Source of the DNA: Arenicellales bacterium | Lineage (GTDB): Bacteria; Pseudomonadota; Gammaproteobacteria; Arenicellales; Poriferihabitantaceae | NCBI GenBank assembly: GCA_965116335.1 | Contig: OZ220677.1 | Coordinates: 228,131-292,130 of the forward strand | Reading direction: 5' to 3' | DNA length: 64,000 nucleotides | In this document: piece after piece, positions 1,945 to 58,500 of the stretch | Numbering within the stretch: position 1 is the first letter of the stretch | Layout of the letters: every line of letters begins with the position of its first letter | Translations under genes and position numbers: made by a program | Notes under the pieces: generated by a model | What the model saw: the letters and a program-made list of their open reading frames with translations, nothing else | What the model was told of the DNA's origin: nothing | The model's database searches: none

Positions 1945-1947
1945 TGA

Positions 1948-2051
1948 CCGGATTACCGGATTACCGGATTACCGGATTACCGGATTACCGGATTACCGGA
2001 TTACCGGATTACCGGATTACCGGATTACCGGATTACCGGATTACCGGATTA
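1948..2051. repeat. Octanucleotide tandem repeat (CCGGATTA) x 13, perfect
   Basis: Counted directly: 104 nt from c1948 to a2051, all units identical. Confidence 0.97.
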
Positions 2052-2135
2052 CGCTTTGGCGCGTCGGCCATGAGCGCGTTCGCGTGGCTGCGCCGTTGCC
2101 TGGGTCCGTCCTCCCGGCCTGAATCTTTACCATCT

Positions 2136-32882: not shown

Positions 32883-32984
32883 CATCATTCCCCCCTTGAG
32901 GGGGAATCCAATCCGCAAACGGTCCCCACACTCCAACCCTACTTCTGCTATAATCCGCAATCGCTACCCGTAAGGAATGTCAAA

Positions 32985-33626: not shown

Positions 33627-33639
33627 CCACGCCCCACTG

Positions 33640-33880
33640 CAACCCATCACTCCCTCCTTGAGGGGGAGTCAAATCTGCGGAGCAGATTTGGTGGGGGCAC
33701 AGCCGTCATTCCACGCCCCAACCCGTCTTTCCCGTGAAAACGGGAATCCACAGCAATATGGAACCTGCAATTACCGATGCGTAGGGGCGCTCCTTGTGGG
33801 TGCCCGGTATCGTTGATACCCGTTCCGGCATTCGCGGGAGGGTACAAGACCCTCCCCTACGATGATGGTTTCGACCACGC
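33640..33880. repeat. REP/BIME-like units (variant A, C, B in reverse orientation)
   Basis: Contains ctccttgagggggagtcaaatctgcggagcagatttggtggggg; ccgtctttcccgtgaaaacgggaatccac; gcgggagggtacaagaccctcccctacgatgatgg. Confidence 0.6.
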
Positions 33881-33891
33881 GCCAAAATCAC

Positions 33892-35329: not shown

Positions 35330-35341
35330 CAAAATCACCAC

Positions 35342-36718
35342 TGTTAAGAGCAAATAGACTTGTCCGGTTTTATAGCAAATGAATTGTCCGCTTTTATGAT
35401 ACCTTGATTCTTGCTCCGGGTTAACCCGGAGCAAGAATCAAACCGAACGTGCGCGGCGGACCGGACGCGGCTGTTCGGATGCAAATTCATAGTAATCGCC
35501 CCCTGGCATCGTATCGAGCCAGTTCTCTGGGACCGTGATGAACCGCCAGACCCTGATCCAGATAATCCAGCACCTGGACGCGGGCTTTGACGTAATGGCA
35601 ACGATGCCGGTCTGCCGGTATCTGTAACACCTTGCGCCGATAGCGCACACAGTTGTCTGCACCCACCATTCGCTCATGGCGCTCACACAGAATATCAGAA
35701 AGTACCGACAGGTCGCGGCAAGCGACAAAGGCGCTACCTGCCTCTCTCGCCGGTTTGCTGAACTGGGCATTGTAAGCCGGCAGGTACTCCTTTTGGAGAT
35801 AGCGGTTGGCCGTGTCCATGTCGGTGATGCCTGCACTGGCCAGTTCCTTCACCAGACGATCCTGGTGGGTTCTAAAGACCCGCTCACAGCGCCCCCGCGC
35901 CTGCGGCGAGTAAGCCGGGATCATCTCAATGCCCAACTGCTTCATGGCACGCCCAAATTGAGTCGGATTCTTCTTGCCCACTTTGCCTCCCGCCTCCGGC
36001 GTATGCCAGTAATGACTGCCCCGATCCGTGTACAGCGAACAGAATAGTCCCTTCGACTCAATCACTTCGCGCACCCCCCGGAAACTGCTGCGAGTGCCTT
36101 CTTCTTCACAGAAAAACATCGAGTAATGCTCATTGGTCGCGTCGTCCATCGTCACAATCAAATCCCAACGCTGACCCACCACCCATTCATGCGTACTGCC
36201 GTCCTGATGCAACATCATCCCCGGCCACGGCGCCGCCTCCCGTCTCTTGCGGTGCGCCCCGCGCTTCGCGTACCGCTTCACCACACCCGCTCCCTGCAAC
36301 TGGTTCTTCACCCACGTATAGCTCCTCTGCCCTCCATCCCGCCGATACCAGGAATGAAAATGACGAACGTTCCATCCCCGGTGATGAGCTCGATAACGTT
36401 CCACCAACCTCATCACTTCGTCTACCGGCGCACGACGATGCGACACTTCGCACATACGCTTGTCCAGCAACCCGTCCAGTCCTTCCTCCTCGTAACGATC
36501 TACATAACGACGGAATGTGCGACTACACACCCCCAACAAATTCGCCGCTTCTTCCTGCGTCAATCGACTCTTGTTCCACCCTTCATACGCTTCTTCAAAT
36601 CTCATCTGTCTGGTCTCCTGTAACCACTGCGCCCGGATCATCAAACACCTCTTTCATTGTGTGTCAAAACCGGACAGTTTATGTGCTACTCAACCGGACA
36701 ACTCATTTGCTCGCTACA
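35342..36718 (-). mobile_element. ISNCY-like (IS1202-group-like) insertion sequence, 1,377 bp, with 17-bp target-site duplication
   Basis: The ends are TGTTAAGAGCAAAT... and ...ATTTGCTCGCTACA (TGT/ACA termini). Subterminal TTGTCCGG motifs occur twice at each end. The element is flanked by the identical 17-mer TTCAGCAAAATCACCAC at 35325-35341 and 36719-36735. The family call rests on my memory of the transposase sequence pattern. Confidence 0.7.
35487..36644 (-). CDS. Integrase-core (rve/DDE) transposase with N-terminal HTH, ISNCY-family-like
   Basis: 385 aa with the HTH LTQEEAANLLGVCSRTFRRYVDRYEEEGLDGL. The catalytic pattern is HQDGSTHEW...YTDRGSHY...SPQARGRCER. Confidence 0.85.
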   Translation of the reverse strand: MMIRAQWLQETRQMRFEEAYEGWNKSRLTQEEAANLLGVCSRTFRRYVDRYEEEGLDGLLDKRMCEVSHRRAPVDEVMRLVERYRAHHRGWNVRHFHSWYRRDGGQRSYTWVKNQLQGAGVVKRYAKRGAHRKRREAAPWPGMMLHQDGSTHEWVVGQRWDLIVTMDDATNEHYSMFFCEEEGTRSSFRGVREVIESKGLFCSLYTDRGSHYWHTPEAGGKVGKKNPTQFGRAMKQLGIEMIPAYSPQARGRCERVFRTHQDRLVKELASAGITDMDTANRYLQKEYLPAYNAQFSKPAREAGSAFVACRDLSVLSDILCERHERMVGADNCVRYRRKVLQIPADRHRCHYVKARVQVLDYLDQGLAVHHGPRELARYDARGRLL

Positions 36719-36842
36719 TTCAGCAAAATCACCACTTGACAGGCGATGACGCTTACAGCAAACTTACCCCCTCAATATCCGGTAAAAAGCAGGCTAATGC
36801 AATGAAAAAAATAGAAATAAATTCAATTAAGTCCTTGATTTA

Positions 36843-36851
36843 TGGTATAAT
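36843..36851 (+). promoter_or_regulatory. Perfect extended -10 element TGGTATAAT (putative), copy 2
   Basis: Identical sequence and identical position relative to the VNTR as at 1936-1944. Confidence 0.4.
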
Positions 36852-36854
36852 TGA

Positions 36855-36886
36855 CCGGATTACCGGATTACCGGATTACCGGATTA
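36855..36886. repeat. Octanucleotide tandem repeat (CCGGATTA) x 4
   Basis: Counted directly: 32 nt, all units perfect. Confidence 0.97.
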
Positions 36887-37239
36887 CGCTTGGCGCGTCG
36901 GCGTGACGGCCATGAGCGCGTTCGCGTGGCTGCGCCGTTGTCGGGGTTGGTTCTCCCGGCCTGAATCTTTACCATCTGTCATTCCCCCCTTGAGGGGGAA
37001 TCCAATCCGCGAAACGGATTGGATGGGGGGGGCGCAGTGTCGAAATTAATATCAAAATTGCATTGCATTACCGAGCGTTTTAGATACAATCACGGTTCCT
37101 GTCGGATGCCCTGTTGGCCCGTTTGTTAATGTTACGTGTACCAGTCTAAAGAGCCAACTCAGGAACCGAACCCCCAAGTACGAACCAAAATGCAACAAGA
37201 AAGCAGACTGATAAAGAAGAGCGGGGAAATTCCCGTTCA

Positions 37240-37261
37240 CCCCCCCCCCCCCCCCCCCCCC
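37240..37261. repeat. Homopolymeric tract C22 (G22 on the - strand)
   Basis: Counted directly (c37240 to c37261). It lies 265 nt upstream of the proposed start of the giant gene. All three + frames hit a stop between the tract and 37527. Confidence 0.97.
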
Positions 37262-37526
37262 TCGATTCTGATTTCGAGACCTTCCGTGCCTTCCGTGAAG
37301 GAAGGGGCGGTGTTCTGCCATTTCGTAATCGCGCATGACCTCCCATGTGCATGACCGCCCCATTTTCGTCTCGGGTCTTTCCTGTTGCCCGTCCGTATTT
37401 TCCGGCATTCCGGTAGCCGGTGTGGTACATGACCTTTCGGTATCGGCTGTAGGGGGAGGTTCTCCAGCCCGGCGAAGCGGTAGCGAAAGTGGTGCCGGGG
37501 GTGGGCTGAATGGGCGGCTTCTGGTG

Positions 37527-40500
37527 ATGCAGCTTCTTCTCGTGTCTGTGGCCATGCTGTTTCTGTTATCCGTTGCCGAGGCCAGTTTAGCGGCAACCGT
37601 GGAGGTGCAGGACGACGATGATGACAAGCCGGGCGTGGTGGTGTCTGAATCCAGCCTGGCACTGACCGAGTTGGGCGCATCCAGCACGGTCGCGAAGACC
37701 TATACCCTGGCGCTGGCAACCGATCCGGGGGCGGATGTTGGAGTGACAGTGACATCGGGCGACCCGACGGCGGTTGTGGTGGACACGGACAGCGTCAGGA
37801 CGGGTAACCAGAACACGCTGACGTTCACCCACGGCAATTCGGGCAACTGGAAAACCGCGCAGACAGTGACGGTGCGCGCGTTGAACGACGGCAATGCGAC
37901 GGGCGAGACGGTGGCCATATCCCATGCTGCCGCGGTGTCCTCGGACCCTGGCAACCCCTATCATCAGGTTCCGGTTGACAAAGTATCGGTGAGCGTTACG
38001 GACGCTGGCCACGGCGTAACGGTTTCGGATTCTGCCCTGTCGGTGCACGCAGGTGACGAAACGGCCACTTATACAATCGTGCTCAAGAGTGCGCCGGGCG
38101 GTACGCTGGAGGTCACGCCGACTTCAAGTGATTCTGCGAAGGCTGTTGTCAGCGCGGCGTTGAGTTTTAATGACAGCAACTGGGATGAGCCGCAGACGGT
38201 GACAGTGACCGGCAAGGGTGCCGGTTCGGTGACAATCACCCACAGCGTGACGGGGGCGACGACGGACTATCCGACCAGCACGACGATTCCCTCGATGGCG
38301 GTCACGGTCATGGCCGCCCGCCCGACGGTTGGAATTGGCCCCGTGTACGTCGAGGTCACTGAAGGCGATGATACCGAAGTCACCGTGACCGTGACGTTGT
38401 CCGCCGCGCTCACCAGCGATATCGTGATTCCACTGTCTACACAACACTTCGAGAGGGGCGCAACTGCCGGATCCGACTATACCGTGCCCAGCCCGTTCAG
38501 CGTCACGATCAGCACCGGCGCGACCAACAAGACGCTCACCATCCCGATCATCGACGATGAGATTGCCGAAGACAATGAACTGTTCAATGTCGTGCTCGAC
38601 ACGGCAAGCCTGCCGCCTGCGGTGCGGGCAGGCCCGAACGTGTCGGTGGCTGTGATTATCAAAGACATTGACGAAGCGGTACTCGTCTCGATCTCCCCTG
38701 AGAGCACGGAGGTCAAAGAGGGCGGATCCGTGGAAGTGACGGCCCGACTCGCAGAAGCGATTCAAGCCGATGCAACAATCGGAGTTTCACTGAGACAGGT
38801 TCGTTTTGCACAGGCGGGTAGGGACTACACGGATCCAGCCCCAGGCTCGACAGTTGACTTTAGTCTGAGCATTCCTGCGGGCAAGACCCGCGCCAGCGCG
38901 ACCATCACGACGATCGACAATGGCGAGAGCCTCCTGAATACCGATGAGCTGAAAGGCAACTCGGAGATCCATGCCGCTCTGCTTGCTGACGGTCTGATCG
39001 AACATGGACTCAGGATTGATGGGGAAAACGCCTCTACACACATCACAATCCTGGAGAACGACGCCGTAATTGTGACCGAGACCGATTCCGCAACTGTGGT
39101 GTCCGAGCCGTCTGGAACGGACACCTACCAGATTCGCCTGGCGGGCGTGCCGGAGAAGGGAACCGTTTCGATTGAGGCGCGTGCGGGAGATGGCCTGCAG
39201 GTGAGCAGCGGAGGCGGTGTGGCAGCGAGCTCGGTCACGCTCGACTTCAACACTACGACCTGGGACACCCCGCAGACTGTAACCGTCAGTGCGGTGGATG
39301 ATGACATCGACAATCCCGGCGGAAGGCGCATGGCGAAGATTGTTCACACGGTCACATCAACAATGGATGCTCCGCAATACGCCGGAATGATCGTCGAGGA
39401 CATCGCCGTCGCCATTATCGACGACGACATGGCTGCAAGCGATATTGCGGTGACGTTGTCGGCTGAGTCGGGCGATCTGGCTGAGGACGGTAGTGACAAG
39501 GTCGTGACGGTGGAGTTGAGCCGTTTGCCAGCGGACGGTGAGAGCCTGGAGGTGCCCCTGACGTTCGGTGGCACGGCGCAGCGCGGCGTGGATTATGCGG
39601 TCAGCGCCGTTGTATCGGAAGTGACCGTCATCTCCGAGGACGGCGTCGGAGTGAAGCAGGCTGCGAACGGCGTGACTTACGCCAATCTGGCCTCCGGTTC
39701 GGCCTCGGTGACGTTTACTGGCGGGTCGGGGAATGCGGTCAGCGCGTCGTTTAGAATCGAGACGATTGCAGACGCGGTAGACGAGGACACGTCGGAGACG
39801 GTGACGGTCGAGCTTGGCGACTTGGGCGAAGGCGCGACCGGGTCGGGTTCATTGAGTTTTGTGATTACCGACGACGACACGGCCGGGGTTGCGGTGGGTG
39901 CGGCATCGGCTTCGGTTGCAGTGGGCGGAGAGACTTCGTATACGTTGCGTCTGACCAGCCAGCCGTTGGGTACGGTTGCGGTGACGCCGACCAGTGATGA
40001 TGCTACCGTGGTTGCGATTGCCTCGATTGCCGGCACCCGTGCCAAATGGGCGGTATTCGATGCCGACAACTGGAATGAGGCGCAGACGGTGACGCTTTCG
40101 GGAGTCGCCACTGGCGGCCCGGTAAATGTGAGCCATGCGGTGACGTATGCGGCGGGCGGCGGTTACGGCACGGATCTTTCGATTGACCCGCTTGCGGTGA
40201 CCGTGACGGCGGCGCCGGTGCCGGTCAAGCCGGTGCTGAACCTTGCGCTGTCCAAAGATACGATGGTCGAAGGCGAATCGACTGAGCTTACCCTGAGCGT
40301 GACTGGTGCGACTCAGGCTGTGACGGTGGCTACGGCCGATCTGCTGTCGGTGACGGGCGTGGCTGCGTCTGACTACCTGTTGCCCGATTTGCCAGCGCAG
40401 CTCACGTTCCGTGCGCCTGACTATGTGCAGACCTTCGGGCTGCTTGCGTTGTATGACGAGGCTGATGAGTCCAACGAGGCGTTGACGGTTGGCTTTGGCA

Positions 40501-43500
40501 GCGGCTTCCCGGCTACGTTTGACCAGGGCACGGAGGCGAGCGTGACGATCATTGACGCGAATCCGACAAAAGTGACTGTGCTCGCTGGTGAAGACGATAT
40601 GGTCGATCTGGTCGAGGGCGACGAGACCGGTGTGACGGTCACTCTGAGCCGTGCACTGGCCGCTGGCGAGACGGTCACCGTGCCGCTGACAGTAGCCGGT
40701 ACGGACGTCGACGCCAGCGACTACACACTTACGCTGGATTCCGGTGCTGTCAACCCCGGCGTATCGCTGAACACATCGGCACCGTACAGCGCCGCGCAGC
40801 CTGCCGTAGTATTTACCGGCTCGGACGATGCGGGGGTGACCACGGCTGCGCTTTCTTTCGCGGTGGTCGATGACGGCGTGGCGGAAGGCCGCGAAGTGCT
40901 CACTCTGTGGATGGGTACACTGGACAGCAATCTGGATCGCGCGAGCGGTACGGGTGCGGATGGCACGGTCGCTGGTGGCACCCCGGTACTCATCCGGGTA
41001 CGTGACCTGGCAGTATCCGCCACTGCTCCTGCGGTGAAGGTCAGTCCGAGCTACCTGGAAGTGACAGAGAACGGTACGCCGGGTCTCTACTACGTGTGGC
41101 TGGCCAGCGACCCGGGGCAGGCGGTGACGGTGAACCTCACCTCCGGCGATGCGACCAGAGTGCGGGTTGAACCTTCGCAACTCACCTTCACATCAAGCGG
41201 AGAGACGATCTGGAGCCAGCCGCAGGCGGTTCGGGTCACCGCCCGCCCGGACGCGGATGTCATTCAGGGCAATAACGTTACCATCACCCATACGGTGAGC
41301 GGCTATACGGGCGTTTCATCGGTGAGCGATGTGATCGTCAGACTGCGTGATGCCGGGCACGGGGTGATAGCATCGAGCCGCACGCTTGACGTATCCGAAG
41401 GCGGTACGGCCGAGTACAAACTGCGTCTCAAGAGCCAGCCGACCCATGCGGTGACGATTACGCCACGGGTTTCTGATAGCGGTCAGGTACTCAAAGCGGG
41501 TGCGGCGGTGACCTTCCAGCCCAATGAATGGAATACAGACAAGGCGATTGCGCTATCCGGGCTGTCGCCGGGGCGTGCGACCGTGCTGCACGAGGTCTCT
41601 TCAACGGACACAAATTACGACGATATGAGTGGTATCGTGCGCATCGGCGTGACGGTTGCAGCGGCACCTTCGCGCATCAGCGGCGCGAGTTTCACGATTG
41701 TGCCGGTGGCAACCCGTGTGCCCGGTGGTACGGCTGCAGCCTTTACCGTGAGTGCCGCCAATGCGCTCACCGGCGAGGTAGCGGTTGAGGTAGTAATCGG
41801 TGATGTCGGCGGTGTAGTGGCTGCCGGTGAGTTCCTCAGCCGCAAGCTGATTGTGCCGGCGGGCGGCAGTGCGACATTCAATGTCAAGACCCGCTCCTTC
41901 ACCGAGGATCGTCCAGACGGCGCCATCACTGCGACCCTGGCCAGTCGCTACGGCGGCGCCAGTGCCCGGATTGCGGTGGTTGACAATATCGCGACGGCGG
42001 TATCGCTGGTGCCGGGCAAGAAGTCAAGTCTGCTGGAGCAGACGCCGGCTGACAAGGCGCAGGTGACGGTGATGCTGGCGCGCGACCTGGTCGCCGGCGA
42101 GATTGTGGATGTGCCGCTGGTCTTTGCCACGACTGACGGCGTGGCCCTGCCGGGCGCGGCGCAACCACACATCGCGCTGAGTGCACGGGGTGTTGGCGTG
42201 ACGCTGCGCGATGAGACCACGGCCTCGCCGAAGTTGCGTTTCACCGGCGGTGCAGGTAACGAACGGGTTGCCACTGTCGAGATTTACGCGACCACCGAGG
42301 ACGATAGCAATTTGACCGATGATGCATTCACGGTCACGCTCGGTGATCTGGACGCGGCGACACTCGGCACCACGGTGTCGGGTGGTGCGGTGGCGGGTGC
42401 TGGAAGCAATCTGGCGACGTTAACCCTGGTCGACAACGATGCTTTTGTGACCGTCTCGGATGCTCAAGCGGCTGAGGGCGAAGCACTTGAGTTTATGGTG
42501 ACGCTACCCAATCCGGCACCGGCGGACGGTGTGACGGTGGGCTACACGCTGGCAGACGGCAGCGACGGGGCGGTGTATTCGCGGGCCACGACACCGGATG
42601 ATTTTGGGGGGCGCAGTGGCTCGCTGGAGATAGCACAAGGCGCATCGAGCGGCACGATTTCGGTGGCGACAGTGGATGACAATGTCTACGAGTCGGATCA
42701 CCATTTCGAGGTGCGCCTGACCTCGACCACACACGGGACGCTGCACAGCACGCACTATCGTGCGACCGGCACCATCGAAGATGATGCCGATACGCCGGTG
42801 TTCGGATTCTTGAGTGGGCTGCACCGGGTGACCGAGGGCAACCGTATTCTGGTCAGCGTTGCGCTCGGCGGCAGTACCACCTCGCTGGTGCCTGCGACGT
42901 TGCACTACGCACCGGCTGGTGATGGCGACACGGCTGCGGCTGGCGACTACGCCGGTGCAAGCGGTATGCTCACCTTTGCAGCGGGCGCGACCCGGCAACA
43001 GGTTACGGTGCGCGCCATCGACGACAGCGTCCATGACATCGACGAGCATTTCACGGTGGTTCTGACGGCCGGCGAGCACGCCAGAGTCAGCGACACGCAG
43101 GTTGCCCCGTTCGGACGCACGAAGATCGAGATTGCCGATAACGACCCGGTCAAGGTCGGCGTCGAGGCACCCGATGAGGTGCGTGAGGGCGAGACCGTGA
43201 CGTTTATGTTGCGCCCTGATATTACGGTGGAGAACGATCTCAACTTGAAGGTGCGGATCACGCAAGGCGGCGATTATGTGACCCCGACCGCGATCCGGCA
43301 GTACACGGTCGTGTTGCACGGTGGCACGAACAGCGTATCGCTGTCGATCAGCACCTCCGACATCGACAGCCATGAGAACGATGGCTGGGTGCGCGCCACG
43401 TTGTTGCCGGGCGCAGGCTACGGTATTGATGCCAGTCGCTTGCACGCGACGACCGTCATCGACGGGGCTGAGCCGAGCGTGAGCCTCCGTGCTGTGGCGG

Positions 43501-46500
43501 GCGAGGTAATCGAAGGCAACGATGCCGAATTCACCGTGAGCACTGACTTTGCGCCGGCGCGCGATCTGGATATTTCATTGAGGGTTGTGCAGGACGGCGA
43601 TTACGCGGCGAACGGACAGATCGGCAGCAAACAGGTCACCCTGAGCGCCGGGCAGACCGAGGCGACCTATGCAGTGCAGACCGATGACGATGCCGTAGAA
43701 GAAAGTCCCGGCTCGATCACCGTCAGCCTGGTGCAAGGCGCAGGCTATAAGGCAGACGCCGAGTCGCAGCCAGCGAGTATTGCGGTCATTGACGACGAGA
43801 CCCCCGAAGTGCGCATCGAGGCTTCTGATGCACAGGTCACCGAAGGCGACTCGGCGACCTTCACCGTGCGCTTGCTGGCCTCGATTGGCTCCCCGGTGAC
43901 GGTTGCCTACCAGGTGTCGGGCACCAGCGGCTATGTCACGGCTGCGACCGATACGGTCGTAGTGCCGACCAGTGGCAGCGCACAGATCACGGTGCCCACG
44001 GTCAATGTGCCGGGCGATACGCCGGATGGTGAACTGACGGTGGCGGCTACCACCGGCGCCGGCTATCGGCTGACGGAGGGCAGTACGCACACCATCGAGG
44101 TGGCTGACGATGAGCCGACTATCGTATCGATCCGCGGCAGCGGTTCGATGATCGAGGGCAATACGGCAAAAACCGCCGAGTTGACGGTGACCCTGTCGCG
44201 CAGCCTGGTCGAAGGCGAGAAGGTGACCGTGCCGTTGCGTTTTGCAACCAGGGAGAGAGACTTCCTGTCCGGTGCGCTCTCGCGCCGCGATGTGGTGGTG
44301 CACGCAGCCGGCGCCAACATTGCCAGGCTCACCGACACCCAGCAACTGGGCTCGGGTGTGCGTCTGTTCGGTCCGTCCAGTAAGCAACTGGCGGGCCAGC
44401 GCACGCCGCCGAACGCGGCCAACTATGCGGTCGAGTTCACGGGCGGTGCTGCGACCCCAACCACAGCTACGCTGAAGCTGACCGCAAGAGCCGAGCGCAC
44501 GCCCAATGACGAGAAGGATGCGAAGATCAATGTGAGCTTCCGCTCGTTCAGTTCGGCCGCGCTGACCAATGTCGGTGGCGGCATCCAGGCCAATAGAGGA
44601 CATAACAGCGCACTCTTTATCGTTGAAGACAAGGATAAGCCGGACACCACCGCGCCGCAGGTGAGCTCGATCACCAGGCAGTTGCCGACCACTACCCCGA
44701 CCCATGCCGACCAGTTGACCTGGCGGGTGACATTCAGCGAGCCGGTGGTCAATGTGGACGCGGCGGATTTTGTGGTGGCGGGCACGACCGCCTCGCTGAG
44801 CGTATCGCAGGTCTCATCGTCGGTTTACGATGTTAGAGCCTCAGGCGGCAACCTGGCCAGCCTGAATGACACGGTGACGCTGGGCTTTAACGCCAGCCAT
44901 AACATCGCCGACGCCAACGGCAACGCGCTGGCCGCGAACCCGACGCCCACCGGCAGCCATGACAATACCTTTGTGGTCGACAATACGGCACCGACGGTAA
45001 CGATTACAGTGCCCTCGACGAGTGGCGCGATTTCAGGGGCGGTGACGGCGACGTTCACCTTCGACGAGGCGGTGAGCGGGTTTGAAACCAGCGACATCGC
45101 GGTCACTAACGCCGCAGTATCGGGCTTTGCGCTCGACACTGCGGACACGATCTGGACGGCGACGATCACGCCGAACGTCAACGGCACGCCGGTGACGGTC
45201 GATGTGGCGGCCAACGCAGCCGATGATCGGGCCGGCAACGGCAGCGCCGCGGCGACGCAGGTTAGCGTGAACTACACCAAGACACTGGGTGCGCCGGTCA
45301 GCTTCACGGCGACCCCGGGCGACGGGCAGGTATCGCTTGCGTGGTCGGCGCCGACTGGCAGTGCTGGTACTGCGGCGGTGAGCAAGTACCAGTACCGCTA
45401 CCAGGCGGGCGCGAGCGTCACCTCGGCCACCTGGACCGATATTGCAGATGGCACCGATGCCGGCAACAGCGCAGGCGACGAGACCTCGGTGACGGTGACC
45501 GGGCTGATCAACGGCACCCAATACGCCTTCGAACTTCGAGCGGTCAATGCCGCAGGCGATGGCGATGCGGCAACCAACACGGCGACGCCGGTGCCTTCCG
45601 GCGATATTGCGGTGACGTTGTCGGCTGAGTCGGGCGATCTGGCTGAGGACGGCAGTGACAAGGTCGTGACGGTGGAGTTGAGCCGTTTGCCAGCGGACGG
45701 TGAGAGCCTGGAGGTGCCCCTGACGTTCGGTGGCACGGCGCAGCGCGGCGTGGATTATGCGGTCAGCGCCGTTGTATCGGAAGTGACCGTCATCTCCGAG
45801 GACGGCGTCGGAGTGAAGCAGGCTGCGAACGGCGTGACCTGGACTAATCTGGCCTCCGGTTCGGCTTCGGTGACGTTTACTGGCGGGTCGGGGAATGCGG
45901 TCAGCGCGTCGTTTAGAATCGAGACGATTGCAGACGCGGTAGACGAAGGGGCGTCGGAGACGGTGACGGTAGCACTTGGCGACTTGGGCGAAGGCGCGAC
46001 CGGTTCCGGTTCATTGAGTTTTGCCATCACCGACGACGACACGGCGGGTGTTGCGGTGGATGCGTCGTCGTTGTCTACGGTGATCTCAGTCGGCGGTGAG
46101 GCTTCGTATACGTTGCGTCTGACCAGCCAGCCGCTCGGTACGGTAGCGGTGACGCCGACCAGCGATGATGCTACCGTGGTTGCGATTGCCTCGATTGCCG
46201 GCACCCGTGACAAGTGGGCGGTATTCGATGCTGACAACTGGAATGAGGCGCAGACGGTGACGCTTTCGGGAGTCGCCACTGGCGGCCCGGTAAATGTGAG
46301 CCATGCGGTGACGTATGCGGCGGGCGGCGGTTACGGCACGGATCTTTCGATTGACGGGGTTGCGGTGACGGCGGTCAAGCCGGTGCTGAATCTTGCGCTG
46401 TCCCGGGATACGATGGCTGAAGGCGATTCGGCTGAGTTGAAGTTGAGCGTGACTGGTGCGACTCAGGCTGTGACGGTTGCTACGGCCAATTTGCTGTCGG

Positions 46501-49500
46501 TGACGGGCGTGGCTGCGGCAGACTACCGCCTGTTTGATTTACCGGCGCAGATCACGTTCCGTGCGCCTGACTATGTGCAGACCTTCGGGCTGCTTGCGCG
46601 GTATGACGAGGCCGATGAGTTCAACGAGGCACTGACGGTTGGCTTTGGCAGCGGCTTCCCGGCTACGTTTGACCAGGGCACGGAGGCGAGCGTGACGATC
46701 ATTGACGCGAATCCGACAAAAGTGACTGTGCTCGCTGGTGAAGACGATATGGTCGATCTGGTCGAGGGCGACGAGACCGGTGTGACGGTCACTCTGAGCC
46801 GTGCACTGGCCGCTGGCGAGACGGTCACCGTGCCGCTGACAGTAGCCGGTACGGACGTCGACGCCAGCGACTACACACTTACGCTGGATTCCGGTGCTGT
46901 CAACCCCGGCGTATCGCTGAACACATCGGCACCGTACAGCGCCGCGCAGCCTGCCGTAGTATTTACCGGCTCGGACGATGCGGGGGTGACCACGGCTGCG
47001 CTTTCTTTCGCGGTGGTCGATGACGGCGTGGCGGAAGGCCGCGAAGTGCTCACTCTGTGGATGGGTACACTGGACAGCAATCTGGATCGCGCGAGCGGTA
47101 CGGGTGCGGATGGCACGGTCGCTGGTGGCACCCCGGTACTCATCCGGGTACGTGACCTGGCAGTATCCGCCACTGCTCCTGCGGTGAAGGTCAGTCCGAG
47201 CTACCTGGAAGTGACAGAGAACGGTACGCCGGGTCTCTACTACGTGTGGCTGGCCAGCGACCCGGGGCAGGCGGTGACGGTGAACCTCACCTCCGGCGAT
47301 GCGACCAGAGTGCGGGTTGAACCTTCGCAACTCACCTTCACATCAAGCGGAGAGACGATCTGGAGCCAGCCGCAGGCGGTTCGGGTCACCGCCCGCCCGG
47401 ACGCGGATGTCATTCAGGGCAATAACGTTACCATCACCCATACGGTGAGCGGCTATACGGGCGTTTCATCGGTGAGCGATGTGATCGTCAGACTGCGTGA
47501 TGCCGGGCACGGGGTGATAGCATCGAGCCGCACGCTTGACGTATCCGAAGGCGGTACGGCCGAGTACAAACTGCGTCTCAAGAGCCAGCCGACCCATGCG
47601 GTGACGATTACGCCACGGGTTTCTGATAGCGGTCAGGTACTCAAAGCGGGTGCGGCGGTGACCTTCCAGCCCAATGAATGGAATACAGACAAGGCGATTG
47701 CGCTATCCGGGCTGTCGCCGGGGCGTGCGACCGTGCTGCACGAGGTCTCTTCAACGGACACAAATTACGACGATATGAGTGGTATCGTGCGCATCGGCGT
47801 GACGGTTGCAGCGGCACCTTCGCGCATCAGCGGCGCGAGTTTCACGATTGTGCCGGTGGCAACCCGTGTGCCCGGTGGTACGGCTGCAGCCTTTACCGTG
47901 AGTGCCGCCAATGCGCTCACCGGCGAGGTAGCGGTTGAGGTAGTAATCGGTGATGTCGGCGGTGTAGTGGCTGCCGGTGAGTTCCTCAGCCGCAAGCTGA
48001 TTGTGCCGGCGGGCGGCAGTGCGACATTCAATGTCAAGACCCGCTCCTTCACCGAGGATCGTCCAGACGGCGCCATCACTGCGACCCTGGCCAGTCGCTA
48101 CGGCGGCGCCAGTGCCCGGATTGCGGTGGTTGACAATATCGCGACGGCGGTATCGCTGGTGCCGGGCAAGAAGTCAAGTCTGCTTGAGCAGATGCCGGGC
48201 GACAAGGCGCAGGTGACGGTGATGCTGGCGCGCGACCTGGTCGCCGGCGAGGTAGTGGATGTGCCGCTGGTCTTTGCCACGACCGACGGCGTGGCCCTGC
48301 CGGGCGCGGCGCAACCACACATCGCGCTCTCTGCGAGCGGAACCGGCGTGACCCTGATGGATGCGACGACCGCCTCGCCGAAGTTGCGTTTCACCGGCGG
48401 TGCGGGAGACGAACGGGTTGCCACTGTCGAGATTTACGCGACCACCGAGGACGATAGCAATTTGACCGATGATGCATTCACGGTCACGCTCGGTGATCTG
48501 GACGCGGCGACACTCGGCACCACGGTATCGGGCGGCGCGGTAGCTGCTGCGGGCAGCAATCTGGCGACGTTAACCCTGGTTGACAACGATGCCTTTGTGA
48601 CCGTCTCGGGTGCTCAAGCGGCGGAGGGCAGCGACGTGGAGTTCGCGGTGACGCTACCCAATCCGGCACCGGCGGGCGGTGTGACGGTGGGCTACACGCT
48701 GGCAGACGGCACCGGCGGGGCGGTGTATTCGCGGGCCACGACACCGGATGATTTTGGGGGGCGCAGTGGCTCGCTGGAGATAGCACAAGGCGCATCGAGC
48801 GGCACGATTTCGGTGGCGACAGTGGATGACAATGTCTACGAGTCGGATCACCATTTCGAGGTGCGCCTGACCTCGACCACACACGGGACGCTGCACAGCA
48901 CGCACTATCGTGCGACCGGCACCATCGAAGATGATGCCGATACGCCGGTGTTCGGATTCTTGAGTGGGCTGCACCGGGTGACCGAGGGCGACCGTATTCT
49001 GGTCAGCGTTGCGCTCGGCGGCAGTACCACCTCGCTGGTGCCTGCGACGTTGCACTACGCACCGGCTGGTGATGGCGACACGGCTGCGGCTGGCGACTAC
49101 GCCGGTGCAAGCGGTATGCTCACCTTTGCAGCGGGCGCGACCCGGCAACAGGTTACGGTGCGCGCCATCGACGACAGCGTCCATGACATCGACGAGCATT
49201 TCACGGTGGTTCTGACGGCCGGCGAGCACGCCAGAGTCAGCGACACGCAGGTTGCCCCGTTCGGACGCACGAAGATCGAGATTGCCGATAACGACCCGGT
49301 CAAGGTCGGCGTCGAGGCACCCGATGAGGTGCGTGAGGGCGAGACCGTGACGTTTACGTTGCGCCCTGATATTACGGTGGAGAACGATCTCAACTTGAAG
49401 GTGCGGATCACGCAAGGCGGCGATTATGTGACCCCGACCGAGATCCGGCAGTACGACGTGGTATTGAAGGGCGGCACGGACAGCGTATCGCTGTCGATCA

Positions 49501-52500
49501 GCACCTCCGACATCGACAGCCATGAGACCGATGGCTGGGTGCGCGCCACGCTGTTGCCGGGCGCAGGCTACGGTATTGATGCCAGTCGCTCGCGCGCGAC
49601 GGTGGTCATCGACGGGGCTGAGCCGAGCGTGAGCCTCCGTGCTGTGGCGGGCGAGGTAATCGAAGGCAACGATGCCGAATTCACCGTGAGCACTGACTTT
49701 GCGCCGGCGCGCGATCTGGATATTTCATTGAGGGTTGTGCAGGACGGCGATTACGCGGCGAACGGACAGATCGGCAGCAAACAGGTCACCCTGAGCGCCG
49801 GGCAGACCGAGGCGACCTATGCAGTGCAGACCGATGACGATGCCGTAGAAGAAAGTCCCGGCTCGATCACCGTCAGCCTGGTGCAAGGCGCAGGCTATAA
49901 GGCAGACGCCGAGTCGCAGCCAGCGAGTATTGCGGTCATTGACGACGAGACCCCCGAAGTGCGCATCGAGGCTTCTGATGCACAGGTCACCGAAGGCGAC
50001 TCGGCGACCTTCACCGTGCGCTTGCTGGCCTCGATTGGCTCCCCGGTGACGGTTGCCTACCAGGTGTCGGGCACCAGCGGCTATGTCACGGCTGCGACCG
50101 ATACGGTCGTAGTGCCGACCAGTGGCAGCGCACAGATCACGGTGCCCACGGTCAATGTGCCGGGCGATACGCCGGATGGTGAACTGACGGTGGCGGCTAC
50201 CACCGGCGCCGGCTATCGGCTGACGGAGGGCAGTACGCACACCATCGAGGTGGCTGACGATGAGCCGACTATCGTATCGATCCGCGGCAGCGGTTCGATG
50301 ATCGAGGGCAATACGGCAAAAACCGCCGAGTTGACGGTGACCCTGTCGCGCAGCCTGGTCGAAGGCGAGAAGGTGACCGTGCCGTTGCGTTTTGCAACCA
50401 GGGAGAGAGACTTCCTGTCCGGTGCGCTCTCGCGCCGCGATGTGGTGGTGCACGCAGCCGGCGCCAACATTGCCAGGCTCACCGACACCCAGCAACTGGG
50501 CTCGGGTGTGCGTCTGTTCGGTCCGTCCAGTAAGCAACTGGCGGGCCAGCGCACGCCGCCGAACGCGGCCAACTATGCGGTCGAGTTCACGGGCGGTGCT
50601 GCGACCCCAACCACAGCTACGCTGAAGCTGACCGCAAGAGCCGAGCGCACGCCCAATGACGAGAAGGATGCGAAGATCAATGTGAGCTTCCGCTCGTTCA
50701 GTTCGGCCGCGCTGACCAATGTCGGTGGCGGCATCCAGGCCAATAGAGGACATAACAGCGCACTCTTTATCGTTGAAGACAAGGATAAGCCGGACACCAC
50801 CGCGCCGCAGGTGAGCTCGATCACCAGGCAGTTGCCGACCACTACCCCGACCCATGCCGACCAGTTGACCTGGCGGGTGACATTCAGCGAGCCGGTGGTC
50901 AATGTGGACGCGGCGGATTTTGTGGTGGCGGGCACGACCGCCTCGCTGAGCGTATCGCAGGTCTCATCGTCGGTTTACGATGTTAGAGCCTCAGGCGGCA
51001 ACCTGGCCAGCCTGAATGACACGGTGACGCTGGGCTTTAACGCCAGCCATAACATCGCCGACGCCAACGGCAACGCGCTGGCCGCGAACCCGACGCCCAC
51101 CGGCAGCCATGACAATACCTTTGTGGTCGACAATACGGCACCGACGGTAACGATTACAGTGCCCTCGACGAGTGGCGCGATTTCAGGGGCGGTGACGGCG
51201 ACGTTCACCTTCGACGAGGCGGTGAGCGGGTTTGAAACCAGCGACATCGCGGTCACTAACGCCGCAGTATCGGGCTTTGCGCTCGACACTGCGGACACGA
51301 TCTGGACGGCGACGATCACGCCGAACGTCAACGGCACGCCGGTGACGGTCGATGTGGCGGCCAACGCAGCCGATGATCGGGCCGGCAACGGCAGCGCCGC
51401 GGCGACGCAGGTTAGCGTGAACTACACCAAGACACTGGGTGCGCCGGTCAGCTTCACGGCGACCCCGGGCGACGGGCAGGTATCGCTTGCGTGGTCGGCG
51501 CCGACTGGCAGTGCTGGTACTGCGGCGGTGAGCAAGTACCAGTACCGCTACCAGGCGGGCGCGAGCGTCACCTCGGCCACCTGGACCGATATTGCAGATG
51601 GCACCGATGCCGGCAACAGCGCAGGCGACGAGACCTCGGTGACGGTGACCGGGCTGATCAACGGCACCCAATACGCCTTCGAACTTCGAGCGGTCAATGC
51701 CGCAGGCGATGGCGATGCGGCAACCAACACGGCGACGCCGGTGCCTTCCGGCGATATTGCGGTGACGTTGTCGGCTGAGTCGGGCGATCTGGCTGAGGAC
51801 GGCAGTGACAAGGTCGTGACGGTGGAGTTGAGCCGTTTGCCAGCGGACGGTGAGAGCCTGGAGGTGCCCCTGACGTTCGGTGGCACGGCGCAGCGCGGCG
51901 TGGATTATGCGGTCAGCGCCGTTGTATCGGAAGTGACCGTCATCTCCGAGGACGGCGTCGGAGTGAAGCAGGCTGCGAACGGCGTGACCTGGACTAATCT
52001 GGCCTCCGGTTCGGCTTCGGTGACGTTTACTGGCGGGTCGGGGAATGCGGTCAGCGCGTCGTTTAGAATCGAGACGATTGCAGACGCGGTAGACGAAGGG
52101 GCGTCGGAGACGGTGACGGTAGCACTTGGCGACTTGGGCGAAGGCGCGACCGGTTCCGGTTCATTGAGTTTTGCCATCACCGACGACGACACGGCGGGTG
52201 TTGCGGTGGATGCGTCGTCGTTGTCTACGGTGATCTCAGTCGGCGGTGAGGCTTCGTATACGTTGCGTCTGACCAGCCAGCCGCTCGGTACGGTAGCGGT
52301 GACGCCGACCAGCGATGATGCTACCGTGGTTGCGATTGCCTCGATTGCCGGCACCCGTGACAAGTGGGCGGTATTCGATGCTGACAACTGGAATGAGGCG
52401 CAGACGGTGACGCTTTCGGGAGTCGCCACTGGCGGCCCGGTAAATGTGAGCCATGCGGTGACGTATGCGGCGGGCGGCGGTTACGGCACGGATCTTTCGA

Positions 52501-55500
52501 TTGACGGGGTTGCGGTGACGGCGGTCAAGCCGGTGCTGAATCTTGCGCTGTCCCGGGATACGATGGCTGAAGGCGATTCGGCTGAGTTGAAGTTGAGCGT
52601 GACTGGTGCGACTCAGGCTGTGACGGTTGCTACGGCCAATTTGCTGTCGGTGACGGGCGTGGCTGCGGCAGACTACCGCCTGTTTGATTTACCGGCGCAG
52701 ATCACGTTCCGTGCGCCTGACTATGTGCAGACCTTCGGGCTGCTTGCGCGGTATGACGAGGCCGATGAGTTCAACGAGGCACTGACGGTTGGCTTTGGCA
52801 GCGGCTTCCCGGCTACGTTTGACCAGGGCACGGAGGCGAGCGTGACGATCATTGACGCGAATCCGACAAAAGTGACTGTGCTCGCTGGTGAAGACGATAT
52901 GGTCGATCTGGTCGAGGGCGACGAGACCGGTGTGACGGTCACTCTGAGCCGTGCACTGGCCGCTGGCGAGACGGTCACCGTGCCGCTGACAGTAGCCGGT
53001 ACGGACGTCGACGCCAGCGACTACACACTTACGCTGGATTCCGGTGCTGTCAACCCCGGCGTATCGCTGAACACATCGGCACCGTACAGCGCCGCGCAGC
53101 CTGCCGTAGTATTTACCGGCTCGGACGATGCGGGGGTGACCACGGCTGCGCTTTCTTTCGCGGTGGTCGATGACGGCGTGGCGGAAGGCCGCGAAGTGCT
53201 CACTCTGTGGATGGGTACACTGGACAGCAATCTGGATCGCGCGAGCGGTACGGGTGCGGATGGCACGGTCGCTGGTGGCACCCCGGTACTCATCCGGGTA
53301 CGTGACCTGGCAGTATCCGCCACTGCTCCTGCGGTGAAGGTCAGTCCGAGCTACCTGGAAGTGACAGAGAACGGTACGCCGGGTCTCTACTACGTGTGGC
53401 TGGCCAGCGACCCGGGGCAGGCGGTGACGGTGAACCTCACCTCCGGCGATGCGACCAGAGTGCGGGTTGAACCTTCGCAACTCACCTTCACATCAAGCGG
53501 AGAGACGATCTGGAGCCAGCCGCAGGCGGTTCGGGTCACCGCCCGCCCGGACGCGGATGTCATTCAGGGCAATAACGTTACCATCACCCATACGGTGAGC
53601 GGCTATACGGGCGTTTCATCGGTGAGCGATGTGATCGTCAGACTGCGTGATGCCGGGCACGGGGTGATAGCATCGAGCCGCACGCTTGACGTATCCGAAG
53701 GCGGTACGGCCGAGTACAAACTGCGTCTCAAGAGCCAGCCGACCCATGCGGTGACGATTACGCCACGGGTTTCTGATAGCGGTCAGGTACTCAAAGCGGG
53801 TGCGGCGGTGACCTTCCAGCCCAATGAATGGAATACAGACAAGGCGATTGCGCTATCCGGGCTGTCGCCGGGGCGTGCGACCGTGCTGCACGAGGTCTCT
53901 TCAACGGACACAAATTACGACGATATGAGTGGTATCGTGCGCATCGGCGTGACGGTTGCAGCGGCACCTTCGCGCATCAGCGGCGCGAGTTTCACGATTG
54001 TGCCGGTGGCAACCCGTGTGCCCGGTGGTACGGCTGCAGCCTTTACCGTGAGTGCCGCCAATGCGCTCACCGGCGAGGTAGCGGTTGAGGTAGTAATCGG
54101 TGATGTCGGCGGTGTAGTGGCTGCCGGTGAGTTCCTCAGCCGCAAGCTGATTGTGCCGGCGGGCGGCAGTGCGACATTCAATGTCAAGACCCGCTCCTTC
54201 ACCGAGGATCGTCCAGACGGCGCCATCACTGCGACCCTGGCCAGTCGCTACGGCGGCGCCAGTGCCCGGATTGCGGTGGTTGACAATATCGCGACGGCGG
54301 TATCGCTGGTGCCGGGCAAGAAGTCAAGTCTGCTTGAGCAGATGCCGGGCGACAAGGCGCAGGTGACGGTGATGCTGGCGCGCGACCTGGTCGCCGGCGA
54401 GGTAGTGGATGTGCCGCTGGTCTTTGCCACGACCGACGGCGTGGCCCTGCCGGGCGCGGCGCAACCACACATCGCGCTCTCTGCGAGCGGAACCGGCGTG
54501 ACCCTGATGGATGCGACGACCGCCTCGCCGAAGTTGCGTTTCACCGGCGGTGCGGGAGACGAACGGGTTGCCACTGTCGAGATTTACGCGACCACCGAGG
54601 ACGATAGCAATTTGACCGATGATGCATTCACGGTCACGCTCGGTGATCTGGACGCGGCGACACTCGGCACCACGGTATCGGGCGGCGCGGTAGCTGCTGC
54701 GGGCAGCAATCTGGCGACGTTAACCCTGGTTGACAACGATGCCTTTGTGACCGTCTCGGGTGCTCAAGCGGCGGAGGGCAGCGACGTGGAGTTCGCGGTG
54801 ACGCTACCCAATCCGGCACCGGCGGGCGGTGTGACGGTGGGCTACACGCTGGCAGACGGCACCGGCGGGGCGGTGTATTCGCGGGCCACGACACCGGATG
54901 ATTTTGGGGGGCGCAGTGGCTCGCTGGAGATAGCACAAGGCGCATCGAGCGGCACGATTTCGGTGGCGACAGTGGATGACAATGTCTACGAGTCGGATCA
55001 CCATTTCGAGGTGCGCCTGACCTCGACCACACACGGGACGCTGCACAGCACGCACTATCGTGCGACCGGCACCATCGAAGATGATGCCGATACGCCGGTG
55101 TTCGGATTCTTGAGTGGGCTGCACCGGGTGACCGAGGGCGACCGTATTCTGGTCAGCGTTGCGCTCGGCGGCAGTACCACCTCGCTGGTGCCTGCGACGT
55201 TGCACTACGCACCGGCTGGTGATGGCGACACGGCTGCGGCTGGCGACTACGCCGGTGCAAGCGGTATGCTCACCTTTGCAGCGGGCGCGACCCGGCAACA
55301 GGTTACGGTGCGCGCCATCGACGACAGCGTCCATGACATCGACGAGCATTTCACGGTGGTTCTGACGGCCGGCGAGCACGCCAGAGTCAGCGACACGCAG
55401 GTTGCCCCGTTCGGACGCACGAAGATCGAGATTGCCGATAACGACCCGGTCAAGGTCGGCGTCGAGGCACCCGATGAGGTGCGTGAGGGCGAGACCGTGA

Positions 55501-58500
55501 CGTTTACGTTGCGCCCTGATATTACGGTGGAGAACGATCTCAACTTGAAGGTGCGGATCACGCAAGGCGGCGATTATGTGACCCCGACCGAGATCCGGCA
55601 GTACGACGTGGTATTGAAGGGCGGCACGGACAGCGTATCGCTGTCGATCAGCACCTCCGACATCGACAGCCATGAGACCGATGGCTGGGTGCGCGCCACG
55701 CTGTTGCCGGGCGCAGGCTACGGTATTGATGCCAGTCGCTCGCGCGCGACGGTGGTCATCGACGGGGCTGAGCCGAGCGTGAGCCTCCGTGCTGTGGCGG
55801 GCGAGGTAATCGAAGGCAACGATGCCGAATTCACCGTGAGCACTGACTTTGCGCCGGCGCGCGATCTGGATATTTCATTGAGGGTTGTGCAGGACGGCGA
55901 TTACGCGGCGAACGGACAGATCGGCAGCAAACAGGTCACCCTGAGCGCCGGGCAGACCGAGGCGACCTATGCAGTGCAGACCGATGACGATGCCGTAGAA
56001 GAAAGTCCCGGCTCGATCACCGTCAGCCTGGTGCAAGGCGCAGGCTATAAGGCAGACGCCGAGTCGCAGCCAGCGAGTATTGCGGTCATTGACGACGAGA
56101 CCCCCGAAGTGCGCATCGAGGCTTCTGATGCACAGGTCACCGAAGGCGACTCGGCGACCTTCACCGTGCGCTTGCTGGCCTCGATTGGCTCCCCGGTGAC
56201 GGTTGCCTACCAGGTGTCGGGCACCAGCGGCTATGTCACGGCGAACACCGCTACGGTCACGGTGCCGACCAGTGGCAGCGCACAGATCACGGTGCCGACT
56301 CGCGCTGTGTCAGGCGATACGCCGGATGGCGAACTGACGGTGGCGGCTACCACCGGCACCGGCTATCGGCTGACGGAGGGCAGTACGAGTACCATCGAGG
56401 TGGCTGACGATGAGCCGACTATCGTATCGATCCGCGGCAGCGGTTCGATGATCGAGGGCAATACGGCAAAAACCGCCGAGTTGACGGTGACCCTGTCGCG
56501 CAGCCTGGTCGAAGGCGAGAAGGTGACCGTGCCGTTGCGTTTTGCAACCAGGGAGAGAGACTTCCTGTCCGGTGCGCTCTCGCGCCGCGATGTGGTGGTG
56601 CACGCAGCCGGCGCCAACATTGCCAGGCTCACCGACACCCAGAACCTGGGCTCGGGTGTGCGTCTGTTCGGTCCGTCCAGTAAGCAACTGGCGGGCCAGC
56701 GCACGCCGCCGAATGCAGCCAACTATGCGGTCGAGTTCACGGGCGGTGCTGCGACCCCAACCACAGCTACGCTGAAGCTGACCGCAAGAGCCGAGCGCAC
56801 GCCCAATGACGAGAAGGATGCGAAGATCAATGTGAGCTTCCGGTCGTTCAGTCCGCCCGCGCTGACCAATGTCGGTGGCGGCATCCAGGCCAATAGAGGA
56901 CATAACAGCGCAAGGTTCATCGTGGTCGACATAGATCGGTCATCCCCGGCGGCGATGATGCTGACCGTGGATGCGGATACGGGGACGGCTGGCGAGCAGG
57001 ACTCGGTGGCCGAGGACGGCGTGGCCAGGACAGTTCGGGTGACGGCGACGATTGACGGCCAGGCGCGTTTCAGTTCGGACCAGTCGGTGACGGTAAAGGT
57101 CGGTGAATCCGGCGACAGTGCCACCAAAGGAACGGACTACACGAACATTGGCGACCAGACCATCCCTATCAGTGCCGGCAACGCGAGCGGTTATGTGGAC
57201 TTTGTGCTGACGCCGACCGTAGACGTGCTGGATGAGCCGGCAGAGCGGATCAGTCTCAAAGGCACGCTGAGCGGTGTGACGTTTGCCAACACCGGCATCA
57301 CGATCACTGACAACGATGCGACGACGGTGACACTGGCCGGTGACCCTGGCGATCTGACCGAGGGAGCGAGCAAGGATCTGCGCGTGACGCTGGGGCGCGG
57401 ACTGGTCGCAGGCGAAATCCTGGAAGTGCCCCTGACGTTCGGCGGCACAGCGACCCGCGGCACCGACTACACGCTGACCGGCACCGCCGCAGCCGGAGTT
57501 GCCTACAGCAATCTGAACAGCGGCACGGCAACGGTGACCTTCACCGGCGCGGGCAGCGGCGCGACAGCGACCGTGGCCACCCTCACCTTGACGGCGCAGA
57601 CAGACGGCGTTGTCGGGAACACTACCGAGACCGTCGATATTAGGTTGGGCACACTCAACGCTTCCGGCCTGGACGGTGGCACAAGCGAAACTGACAGTCT
57701 CGCCGAGTTCGATATTCTGGATTCTGGCACAGGCGTAACGGTGTCTGAAACCAGCCTGGTGCTCACCGAGCTGGGCGTATCCAGTGCGGTTGAGAAGACC
57801 TATACGTTGGTGCTGGCAAAAGATCCCGGGGCTAACGTGGAGGTGACGATCACTTCGGGCGACCCGACGGCGGTTTTGGTGGACGCCGATGCGGACCAGG
57901 TGGGCGATCAGGGTACGTTTACCTTCACCCACGGCAATTCGGGCAACTGGAACGATCCGCAGACGGTGACGGTGCGCGCGGTGAACGATGGCGATGCGAC
58001 GGGCGAGACGGTGGCGATATCGCATGTCGCTGCGGTGTCTTCGGACAGAGGCAATCCCTATCATCAGATTCCGGTAAGAGACGTGTCGGTGACCGTTACT
58101 GACGCTGGACGCGGGGTGACGGTTTCGGCTGCCAGCCTGTCGGTATTCGAAGGTGGCGGTGCTGCCAGCTACACTCTGGCGCTGATAAGCGATCCGGGAG
58201 GCACGCTGGAAGTGACGCCGGCGAGCGATGCGACCAATGCTGTGGTCAGCGGCGCACTGACCTTCAATTCAAGTGACTGGCGCAGCCCGAAAATAGTGAC
58301 GGTGACCGGCAAGCAGGCAGGCTCGGCCACCATCTCGCACACCGTTACCACGCCCACTACGGCCTACCCGGCGAACACGATGATCGATCCGGTGACGGTC
58401 TCTGTAATCGCCGATGGTGCGGCTCCCCGTCACGGCATCACCTTCATCGAAACCGACGGCGAAACCACTGTCGCAGAACATAACGGGCCGGATGCGCAGG

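Follow-up and report, generated by a model that had tools for sequence, protein, structure and literature searches.

A 64,000-nucleotide stretch of Arenicellales DNA (contig OZ220677.1; hereafter the window, to whose positions all coordinates refer unless stated) contains a giant gene carrying 2.84 in-frame tandem copies of a unit of about 6,150 bp. We put at roughly three chances in four the reading that this array is a real and very recent intragenic segmental amplification, in a gene for a giant (>8,800 amino acids) secreted protein of unlike β-sandwich domains. From 37329 onwards frame 3 meets no stop before the window ends, and the array therefore lies inside one gene that continues past it. 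The three units were aligned and every column up to 56912 was classified as shared or as private to one unit. The features of the array are as follows.

37329-63998, plus strand: giant open reading frame (ORF), frame 3, last stop at 37326; 8,890 codons, reaching the window end.
39441-45602, plus strand: unit 1, 6,162 bp, holding all 172 unit-1-private columns (39491-43454).
45603-51752, plus strand: unit 2, 6,150 bp (2,050 codons), an exact chimera with no private site.
51753-56912, plus strand: unit 3, shortened to 5,160 bp and lacking the Big_12/FN3 tail, with 28 private columns (56243-56856).
43455-56242, plus strand: perfect tandem of period 6150, from an exact run at that offset.
49605-50092, plus strand: putative crossover interval (copies at 43455-43942 and 55755-56242), 488 bp identical in all three units.

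An exact scan for the 32-mer GATATTGCGGTGACGTTGTCGGCTGAGTCGGG found exactly three occurrences, all on the plus strand at 39441, 45603 and 51753, and no match in 100 shuffles. These are the sites named in an earlier note on this DNA, which had been made from the letters and had also claimed that the reading frame is preserved between copies. Indeed, the offsets of 6162 and 6150 are each a multiple of three and all copies lie within the single giant open frame. Self-BLASTN aligned 39439-50762 with 45601-56912 at 98.3% identity and 39439-44612 with 51751-56912 at 96.3% identity; only the offsets 6150/6162 and 12312 were seen. The array spans 39439-56912 (17,472 bp), so that the estimate of about 2.8 copies held at 2.84, and homology stops at 56912, where the third unit had been said to be cut off. 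The array escapes Tandem Repeats Finder, which handles periods of 500 at most; between 36 and 64 kb this program reported no array of period ≤500 except two trivial ones.

Unit 1 exceeds unit 2 by 12 bp, which the three-unit alignment traced to two in-frame indels in unit 1 (6 bp absent after 39913 and 18 bp extra at 40202-40219). At offset 6150 an exact run extends over 43455-50092 (6,638 bp); 43455-56242 is therefore a perfect tandem of 12,788 bp, comprising 2.08 copies with zero mismatch. The last 2,148 bp of unit 1 are the same as the last 2,148 bp of unit 2, and 45603-50092 is identical to 51753-56242 (4,490 bp of units 2 and 3). The identity of about 4.4 kb between units 2 and 3 noticed by eye was thus correct and an understatement of the full perfect tandem.

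The distribution of private columns carries the interpretation. Unit 1 has 172 and unit 3 has 28; unit 2 has none, and no column differs in all three units. Up to 50092, over its first 4.49 kb, unit 2 is the same as unit 3; from 49605 onwards, over its last 2.15 kb, it is the same as unit 1. Because unit-2-private and three-way-different columns are both absent, unit 2 is a hybrid made up exactly of parts of its neighbours, the head of unit 3 and the tail of unit 1. The switch is bounded by the last unit-1-private column (43454/49604/55754 in the three units) and the first unit-3-private column (43943/50093/56243). Unequal exchange between two diverged direct repeats classically yields a middle copy that is a hybrid of both and switches once from one to the other; the array has such a middle copy, with one switch point and no private changes. 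The proposal that the copies are a substrate for recombination gains support from this result, since an exact chimera with private sites distributed 172/0/28 is what one unequal crossover predicts.

A history in two steps would account for the array. In the first, an older in-frame tandem duplication would have given 1.84 copies of a block of ~6.16 kb with ends at domain borders, and gene conversion would then have homogenised most of both copies, leaving five diverged patches. Unit 1 compared with units 2 and 3 is a mosaic: five patches of 190-390 bp, 7-19% diverged, are interspersed with identical blocks, the longest of which has 1,553 columns. When as many differences were placed at random 10,000 times, no identical block exceeded 334 columns. 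In the diverged stretches the codon changes between units 1 and 2 were 47 synonymous and 49 non-synonymous, about half of each kind. Donors of the patches were sought elsewhere in the window and none was found, leaving unsupported the idea that the patches were imported by conversion from another module in the window. An older duplication largely homogenised by gene conversion is the simplest reading of the older pair.

In the second step, one unequal homologous crossover would have joined the head of the distal copy to the tail of the proximal copy within the shared 488 bp. Its product would be unit 1, then the unit 3 head joined to the unit 1 tail, then unit 3, with the 12.8-kb perfect tandem as the result. 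Zero differences in 6,638 bp give a Poisson 95% upper bound of ~0.045% divergence, and a same-species relative (locus L009) differs from the window by 1.2-2% in DNA. Because the first value is so far below the second, the last event would on that basis be much younger than the split of the two strains, unless differences are continually removed by conversion. Perfect identity over 6.6 kb, at an offset of 6,150 bp, would be a strong RecA substrate, and the gene should gain and lose units of 2,050 codons, always in frame. Each unit gained or lost would amount to ~19-20 folded domains, which in an extended chain would measure roughly 80-100 nm, and neighbouring domains would stay unlike.

The make-up of the unit was examined by Pfam, sequence comparison and structure prediction. 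Big_12 (E=9e-17) and fn3 (E=2.6e-9) were found at unit residues 1843-1938 and 1950-2040, where they end the full units; after 56912 Pfam found neither. The claim that full units end in Ig-like modules plus an FN3 domain, and that unit 3 lacks this tail, is borne out by these matches, which occur in full units only. The positions in unit 2 are given below.

50763-51752, plus strand: unit tail, found in units 1 and 2 but not in unit 3 (unit 1 copy at 44613-45602), with Ig-like modules, Big_12, FN3 and the linker TPVPSG.
51129-51416, plus strand: Big_12 in the unit 2 tail (Pfam).
51450-51722, plus strand: FN3 in the unit 2 tail (Pfam).
48930-49295, plus strand: best Calx-beta domain of unit 2 (Pfam PF03160; unit residues 1110-1231).

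Calx-beta scored 48.5 bits in the N-terminal part of the protein, 83 in the unit and 128 in the C-terminal part, all passing the PF03160 gathering score of 27 bits. A sequence search of the PDB with the unit matched the CBD (calcium-binding) domains of the Na/Ca exchanger and FN3 domains. Whole-unit self-BLASTP returned the self-match only, and a fragment-wise search was used instead; by this the modules inside the unit share 26-48% protein identity, without similarity at the DNA level. The array is thus not one of a single similar module, and it is only between whole 2,050-codon super-units that identity is high.

An AlphaFold2 model of unit residues 1-1100, built on an alignment of 19 sequences, was all-beta with ~83 strands and a mean predicted local distance difference test (pLDDT) of 77; its predicted template-modelling score (pTM) of 0.37 makes it uninformative on overall shape. 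The strand count is consistent with 10-11 sandwich domains in the modelled part and ~19-20 per unit, and this prediction agrees with the earlier note's figure of about 20 modules. Foldseek against the PDB gave generic multi-Ig matches only, with template-modelling scores of 0.1-0.2. Each unit is therefore described here as about 19-20 different β-sandwich domains, comprising Calx-beta, Big_12, FN3 and unannotated ones. The repeat starts after ...IIDDDMAAS or after the Pro-rich linker ...TPVPSG, and ends in the last strand of a domain, where ...RGHNSA is followed by LFIVEDKD in units 1 and 2 and by RFIVVDID in unit 3. Since the repeat both starts and stops at domain borders, every copy number yields a protein of intact domains.

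Homologous giant genes were retrieved from other lineages. The closest were those of an Arenicellales metagenome-assembled genome (MAG; L002, OZ243952.1), its near-twin L006, a Binatia MAG (L001, OZ243916.1) and the relatives L004 and L005, at 59-69% unit-level protein identity; over its C-terminal 2,090 amino acids the window protein has 79% identity to L002. With the unit, peptide-pattern scans picked up L001 and L002 in genome contigs and L011 in metagenome contigs, relatives at 63-69%. A further match, L003, is unrelated at only 24% identity. An exact 32-mer scan of metagenome contigs gave 0 matches, and a protein search with the unit gave nothing above 75% identity. None of the protein matches listed was longer than ~3,600 amino acids, and related loci have called genes of 5,000-7,600 amino acids; we infer that very long orthologues are missing from the searched protein collection.

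These homologues have super-repeats of their own. That of L001 is 6.8 kb at offset 7602 (91% identity) and that of L005 is 7.6 kb at offset 7596 (94%); L002 and L006 each have one of 3.5 kb at offset ~8270 (86%) and one of 2.2 kb at offset ~7520 (91-92%). The window copies are 96.8-100% alike mutually and at most 77% like any foreign copy, which places the origin of the window amplification, or its homogenisation, within its own lineage. One Binatia copy (L001_13787) is 91% like the L005 copies and 87% like its own L001 partner; the duplication in the Binatia lineage therefore predates the L001/L005 split. On these comparisons, multi-kilobase intragenic duplication in this giant-gene family is recurrent and sometimes long-lived. 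The L001 and L002 proteins are homologous to that of the window and share with it the presence of super-repeats, theirs of 7.5-8.3 kb. They differ in having two copies at 86-94% identity, whereas the window has three at 96-100%, including the perfect 12.8-kb tandem. Their periods and unit content also differ, and a Big_12/FN3 cassette inside the unit is found only in the window.

Several points weigh against a recent amplification of this kind. A true third unit cannot be told from an extra assembler turn by sequence alone, and the warning that the region is an assembly trap was well founded: one extra turn round the repeat cycle would print the identical sequence. Among ten related giant-gene loci compared, only the window has a repeat above 95% identity, a fact that fits recency and also an artefact. 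No second same-species copy of the giant gene was found by the 32-mer, peptide-pattern or protein searches. The perfect identity could be upheld by ongoing gene conversion rather than reflect a single recent event. As to function, we infer an adhesin or spacer role from domain types only; no ligand-binding or anchor domain was found in the window portion of the protein, and the C-terminus, hence any anchor or secretion signal, falls outside the window.

The competing explanation that survives best, though we regard it as unlikely, is over-expansion during assembly. The genome would then hold 1.84 copies (unit 1 and the truncated unit 3), and the cycle leading from the shared 488 bp through the unit 1 tail and the unit 3 head back to the shared 488 bp would have been traversed twice; or the true number would exceed 2.84. 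A unit 2 without a private site, made exactly of the unit 3 head and the unit 1 tail, is what an extra traversal prints, and the uniqueness of the >95% repeat among related loci suits this explanation as well. However, the contig is unbroken through exact repeats of 1.5-6.6 kb, implying long reads, and the contig names of the relatives, which are the only guide here, suggest long-read metagenome assemblers. The hybrid path needs ~490 bp to be spanned, and multi-kilobase reads would not build that path unless some reads carried it. Independently assembled relatives, moreover, show super-repeats of the same scale.

Less probable again, and in our estimate improbable, is an old and stable triplication kept identical by continual gene conversion (concerted evolution), with a fixed copy number and no length variation. 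The mosaic of unit 1 against units 2 and 3 shows conversion at work in the array, and the Binatia super-repeat, being older than the L001/L005 split, shows that duplications can persist. Conversion alone, however, predicts several exchanged tracts and not one clean switch with zero private sites in the middle unit; the homology that permits conversion also permits unequal crossover, so that the number could stay fixed only if selection opposed change. A classical single-domain tandem array, of the type known from Periscope proteins or RTX adhesins, whose 6.15-kb period would be a by-product of ~300-bp module repeats, is in keeping with a protein that is a string of ~100-residue β-sandwich modules but was rejected as highly improbable on the low protein identity of the modules and their lack of DNA similarity, the absence of any short-period array and the restriction of the offsets to 6150/6162 and 12312.

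The region of the giant ORF has 60-64% G+C, and ATG 37527 is its likely start codon. Features at and before the 5' end of the gene are as follows.

34033-35310, plus strand: IS4/IS701-like transposase gene (NCBIfam).
35487-36644, minus strand: ISNCY-family transposase gene (NCBIfam).
37240-37261, plus strand: C22 homopolymer in a conserved leader, ~265 bp upstream of the likely start and outside the repeat.
37527-37583, plus strand: Sec-type signal-like N-terminus, MQLLLVSVAMLFLLSVAEA (translation, judged by eye).

Read by eye, the N-terminus MQLLLVSVAMLFLLSVAEA would be a Sec-type signal peptide. The N-terminal 638 amino acids gave Calx-beta or Ig-like matches only in Pfam. Three GGxGxD motifs are scattered through the 8,890 amino acids, and a match to a LapA domain was weak (PF20579, E=0.0026, below the cut-off). 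At the other end of a related protein, the giant ORF of L011 (contig LXNI01001961.1, 14428-15207) ends with ~260 amino acids of alternating strand-like segments and the terminal sequence ...GFEINTRW. By eye this C-terminus resembles an outer-membrane β-barrel, as in an autotransporter; searches of Pfam and PDB sequences with it gave no match.

The C22 tract is the sole homopolymer of ≥9 in the 64 kb. The homologous position in the close relative L012 (12115-12128) holds C14 inside a 440-bp leader, which is otherwise 91.5% identical to window 36979-37421. C22 is a candidate slipped-strand on/off switch; a homopolymer sequencing error is also possible. In the Arenicellales MAG two further giant genes are preceded, at a distance of no more than 3 kb, by shorter tracts, C9 (L008 9704-9712) and C10 (L007 7356-7365). 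A perfect tandem of (ACCGGATT) x 4.2 lies at 36854-36887, between the ISNCY transposase gene and the giant gene. Rfam gave nothing near any gathering score over the leader (36600-37650), a promoter scan gave 0 sites, and no tRNA genes were found in the window.

The 37 kb upstream of the giant gene hold metabolic genes, including those for purine catabolism, xanthine dehydrogenase, a succinyl-CoA-ligase-like pair, formate dehydrogenase and FTHFS. Type I secretion genes (ABC transporter, membrane fusion protein, TolC) were sought in the same 37 kb and none was found. The named FTHFS relatives are Gammaproteobacteria, among them Candidatus Spongiihabitans (85%) and an Arenicellales MAG (83%), and matches from further genomes had 97-100% identity; the host is taken to be an uncultured gammaproteobacterium close to sponge-associated Arenicellales. 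Through the FTHFS homologues four close relatives were reached (L009, L010, L012 and L013), and the giant gene was absent within reach in them.

The locus downstream of FTHFS (window 32894-37421) was different in every one of these relatives. In the same-species L009 (98-98.8% DNA identity), recA-recX-alaS follows the IS4-like gene and collinearity ends at window 35329. L012 (95.9% DNA identity in the flank) has the conserved 440-bp leader, a 111-amino-acid gene and an HlyD/AprE-type membrane fusion gene, the last directly upstream of a different Calx-beta gene of 7,397 amino acids (L012 12852-21668). The N-terminus of this Calx-beta gene, LLVMQLLLVSWVLPFPLSVAEAS, is nearly identical to the signal-like N-terminus of the window protein. 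L010 and L013 (84-88%) have unrelated genes at the locus. Relative to L012, the window has a 4.1-kb insertion that carries a 213-amino-acid ORF and the two transposase genes, which stand directly upstream of the giant gene (34033-36644), at the synteny breakpoint. Because the locus after FTHFS differs in all close relatives examined, the giant gene is, by these alignments, in a variable region flanked by insertion sequences, and giant-gene bodies seem to be exchanged behind a common leader and N-terminus.

Further observations concern the wider family and the rest of the window. Homologous giant-gene segments of L001/L005 (Binatia) and L002/L006 (Arenicellales), from MAGs assigned to different phyla, have 75-79% DNA identity, and both lineages are present in the ENA metagenome assembly ERZ25070917; horizontal transfer of giant genes between co-resident symbionts is possible. 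A second Calx-beta ORF lies at window 1944-10022 (2,692 amino acids, TTG start as listed) and has an internal direct repeat, 3618-4386 against 4758-5514, at offset 1140 and 86% identity. An intergenic element of ~220 bp occurs at 10496-10712, 33646-33862 (inverted) and 2220-2422 with 79-82% identity, and has copies in L009 (12432-12676) and L012 (11705-11903). It may be a small mobile or repetitive extragenic palindromic (REP)-like element.

Taken as a whole, the array clearly exemplifies a known process by which surface proteins change length and does not amount to a system of a new kind. A direct signature in the sequence speaks for recombination; variation in length and a role as an adhesin are presumed. 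If the copy number is real and variable, the surface protein would change length in steps of 2,050 residues through homology between whole multi-domain blocks; the idea of Periscope proteins (see below) would thereby reach the giant proteins of Gram-negative symbionts, with a way round the rule that neighbouring domains be unlike. Two uses follow that concern method: the 12.8-kb perfect tandem can serve as a benchmark for long-read metagenome assembly, and the pattern of private sites across copies offers a cheap reading of array history as a test for hybrid units.

Compared with known systems, the array shares with textbook amplification by unequal crossover a hybrid middle copy with a single switch point. 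It differs in that the event lies wholly within one reading frame, with a domain border at either end, so that what results is a protein longer than before but normal in all other respects. The giant RTX adhesins of type I secretion systems (LapA, MpIBP, SiiE, FrhA) come from Gram-negative bacteria, are very large and consist for the most part of calcium-binding β-sandwich domains of Ig-like or Calx-beta type. They are marked by a block of RTX nonapeptides and a type I secretion signal at the C-terminus, and by neighbouring genes for an ABC transporter, a membrane fusion protein and TolC. The window protein resembles them in size and in its Ig-like/Calx-beta-type β-sandwich make-up but has a Sec-like hydrophobic N-terminus and not a retention module. 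Titin is known for a pattern of multi-domain super-repeats and provides a structural analogy to that of the window. The literature was also searched for bacterial adhesins with super-repeats and yielded nothing relevant, a result that argues weakly for their absence.

Closest in concept are the Periscope proteins (SasG, Rib/alpha C, Sgo_0707, CdrA), whose tandem repeats are so alike in DNA that they recombine, and whose stalks consequently differ in length between strains (Whelan et al. 2021, PMC8201768). Members of the class are anchored at the cell surface and bear a functional domain at the far end of a rod-like stalk. In that work such proteins are detected by repeats of >50 amino acids at ≥80% identity; each repeat is one domain or an E-G5 pair, and the near-identical neighbours break the rule of <50% identity between adjacent domains (PMC8201768). 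The window gene, with units of 2,050 amino acids at 96-100% DNA identity, comes under the detection rule. It shares with the class a secreted or surface-type product, long near-identical tandem repeats and a proposed in-frame intragenic recombination that changes length. It falls outside the structural definition: its unit consists of ~20 unlike domains, 26-48% identical, so that neighbours stay below 50%, and there are only 2.84 units.

A more speculative view, which we consider doubtful, is that selection has favoured multi-domain super-repeats as a device for switching the length of giant surface proteins in sponge-associated bacteria, a device recurring in unrelated lineages (Arenicellales, Binatia) and perhaps combined with a poly-C on/off switch. 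If so, 6 kb of perfect homology would lead to frequent RecA-driven gain and loss of ~80-100 nm of stalk, and a block of ~20 unlike domains would avoid the risk of misfolding between adjacent identical domains that single-domain Periscope proteins accept.

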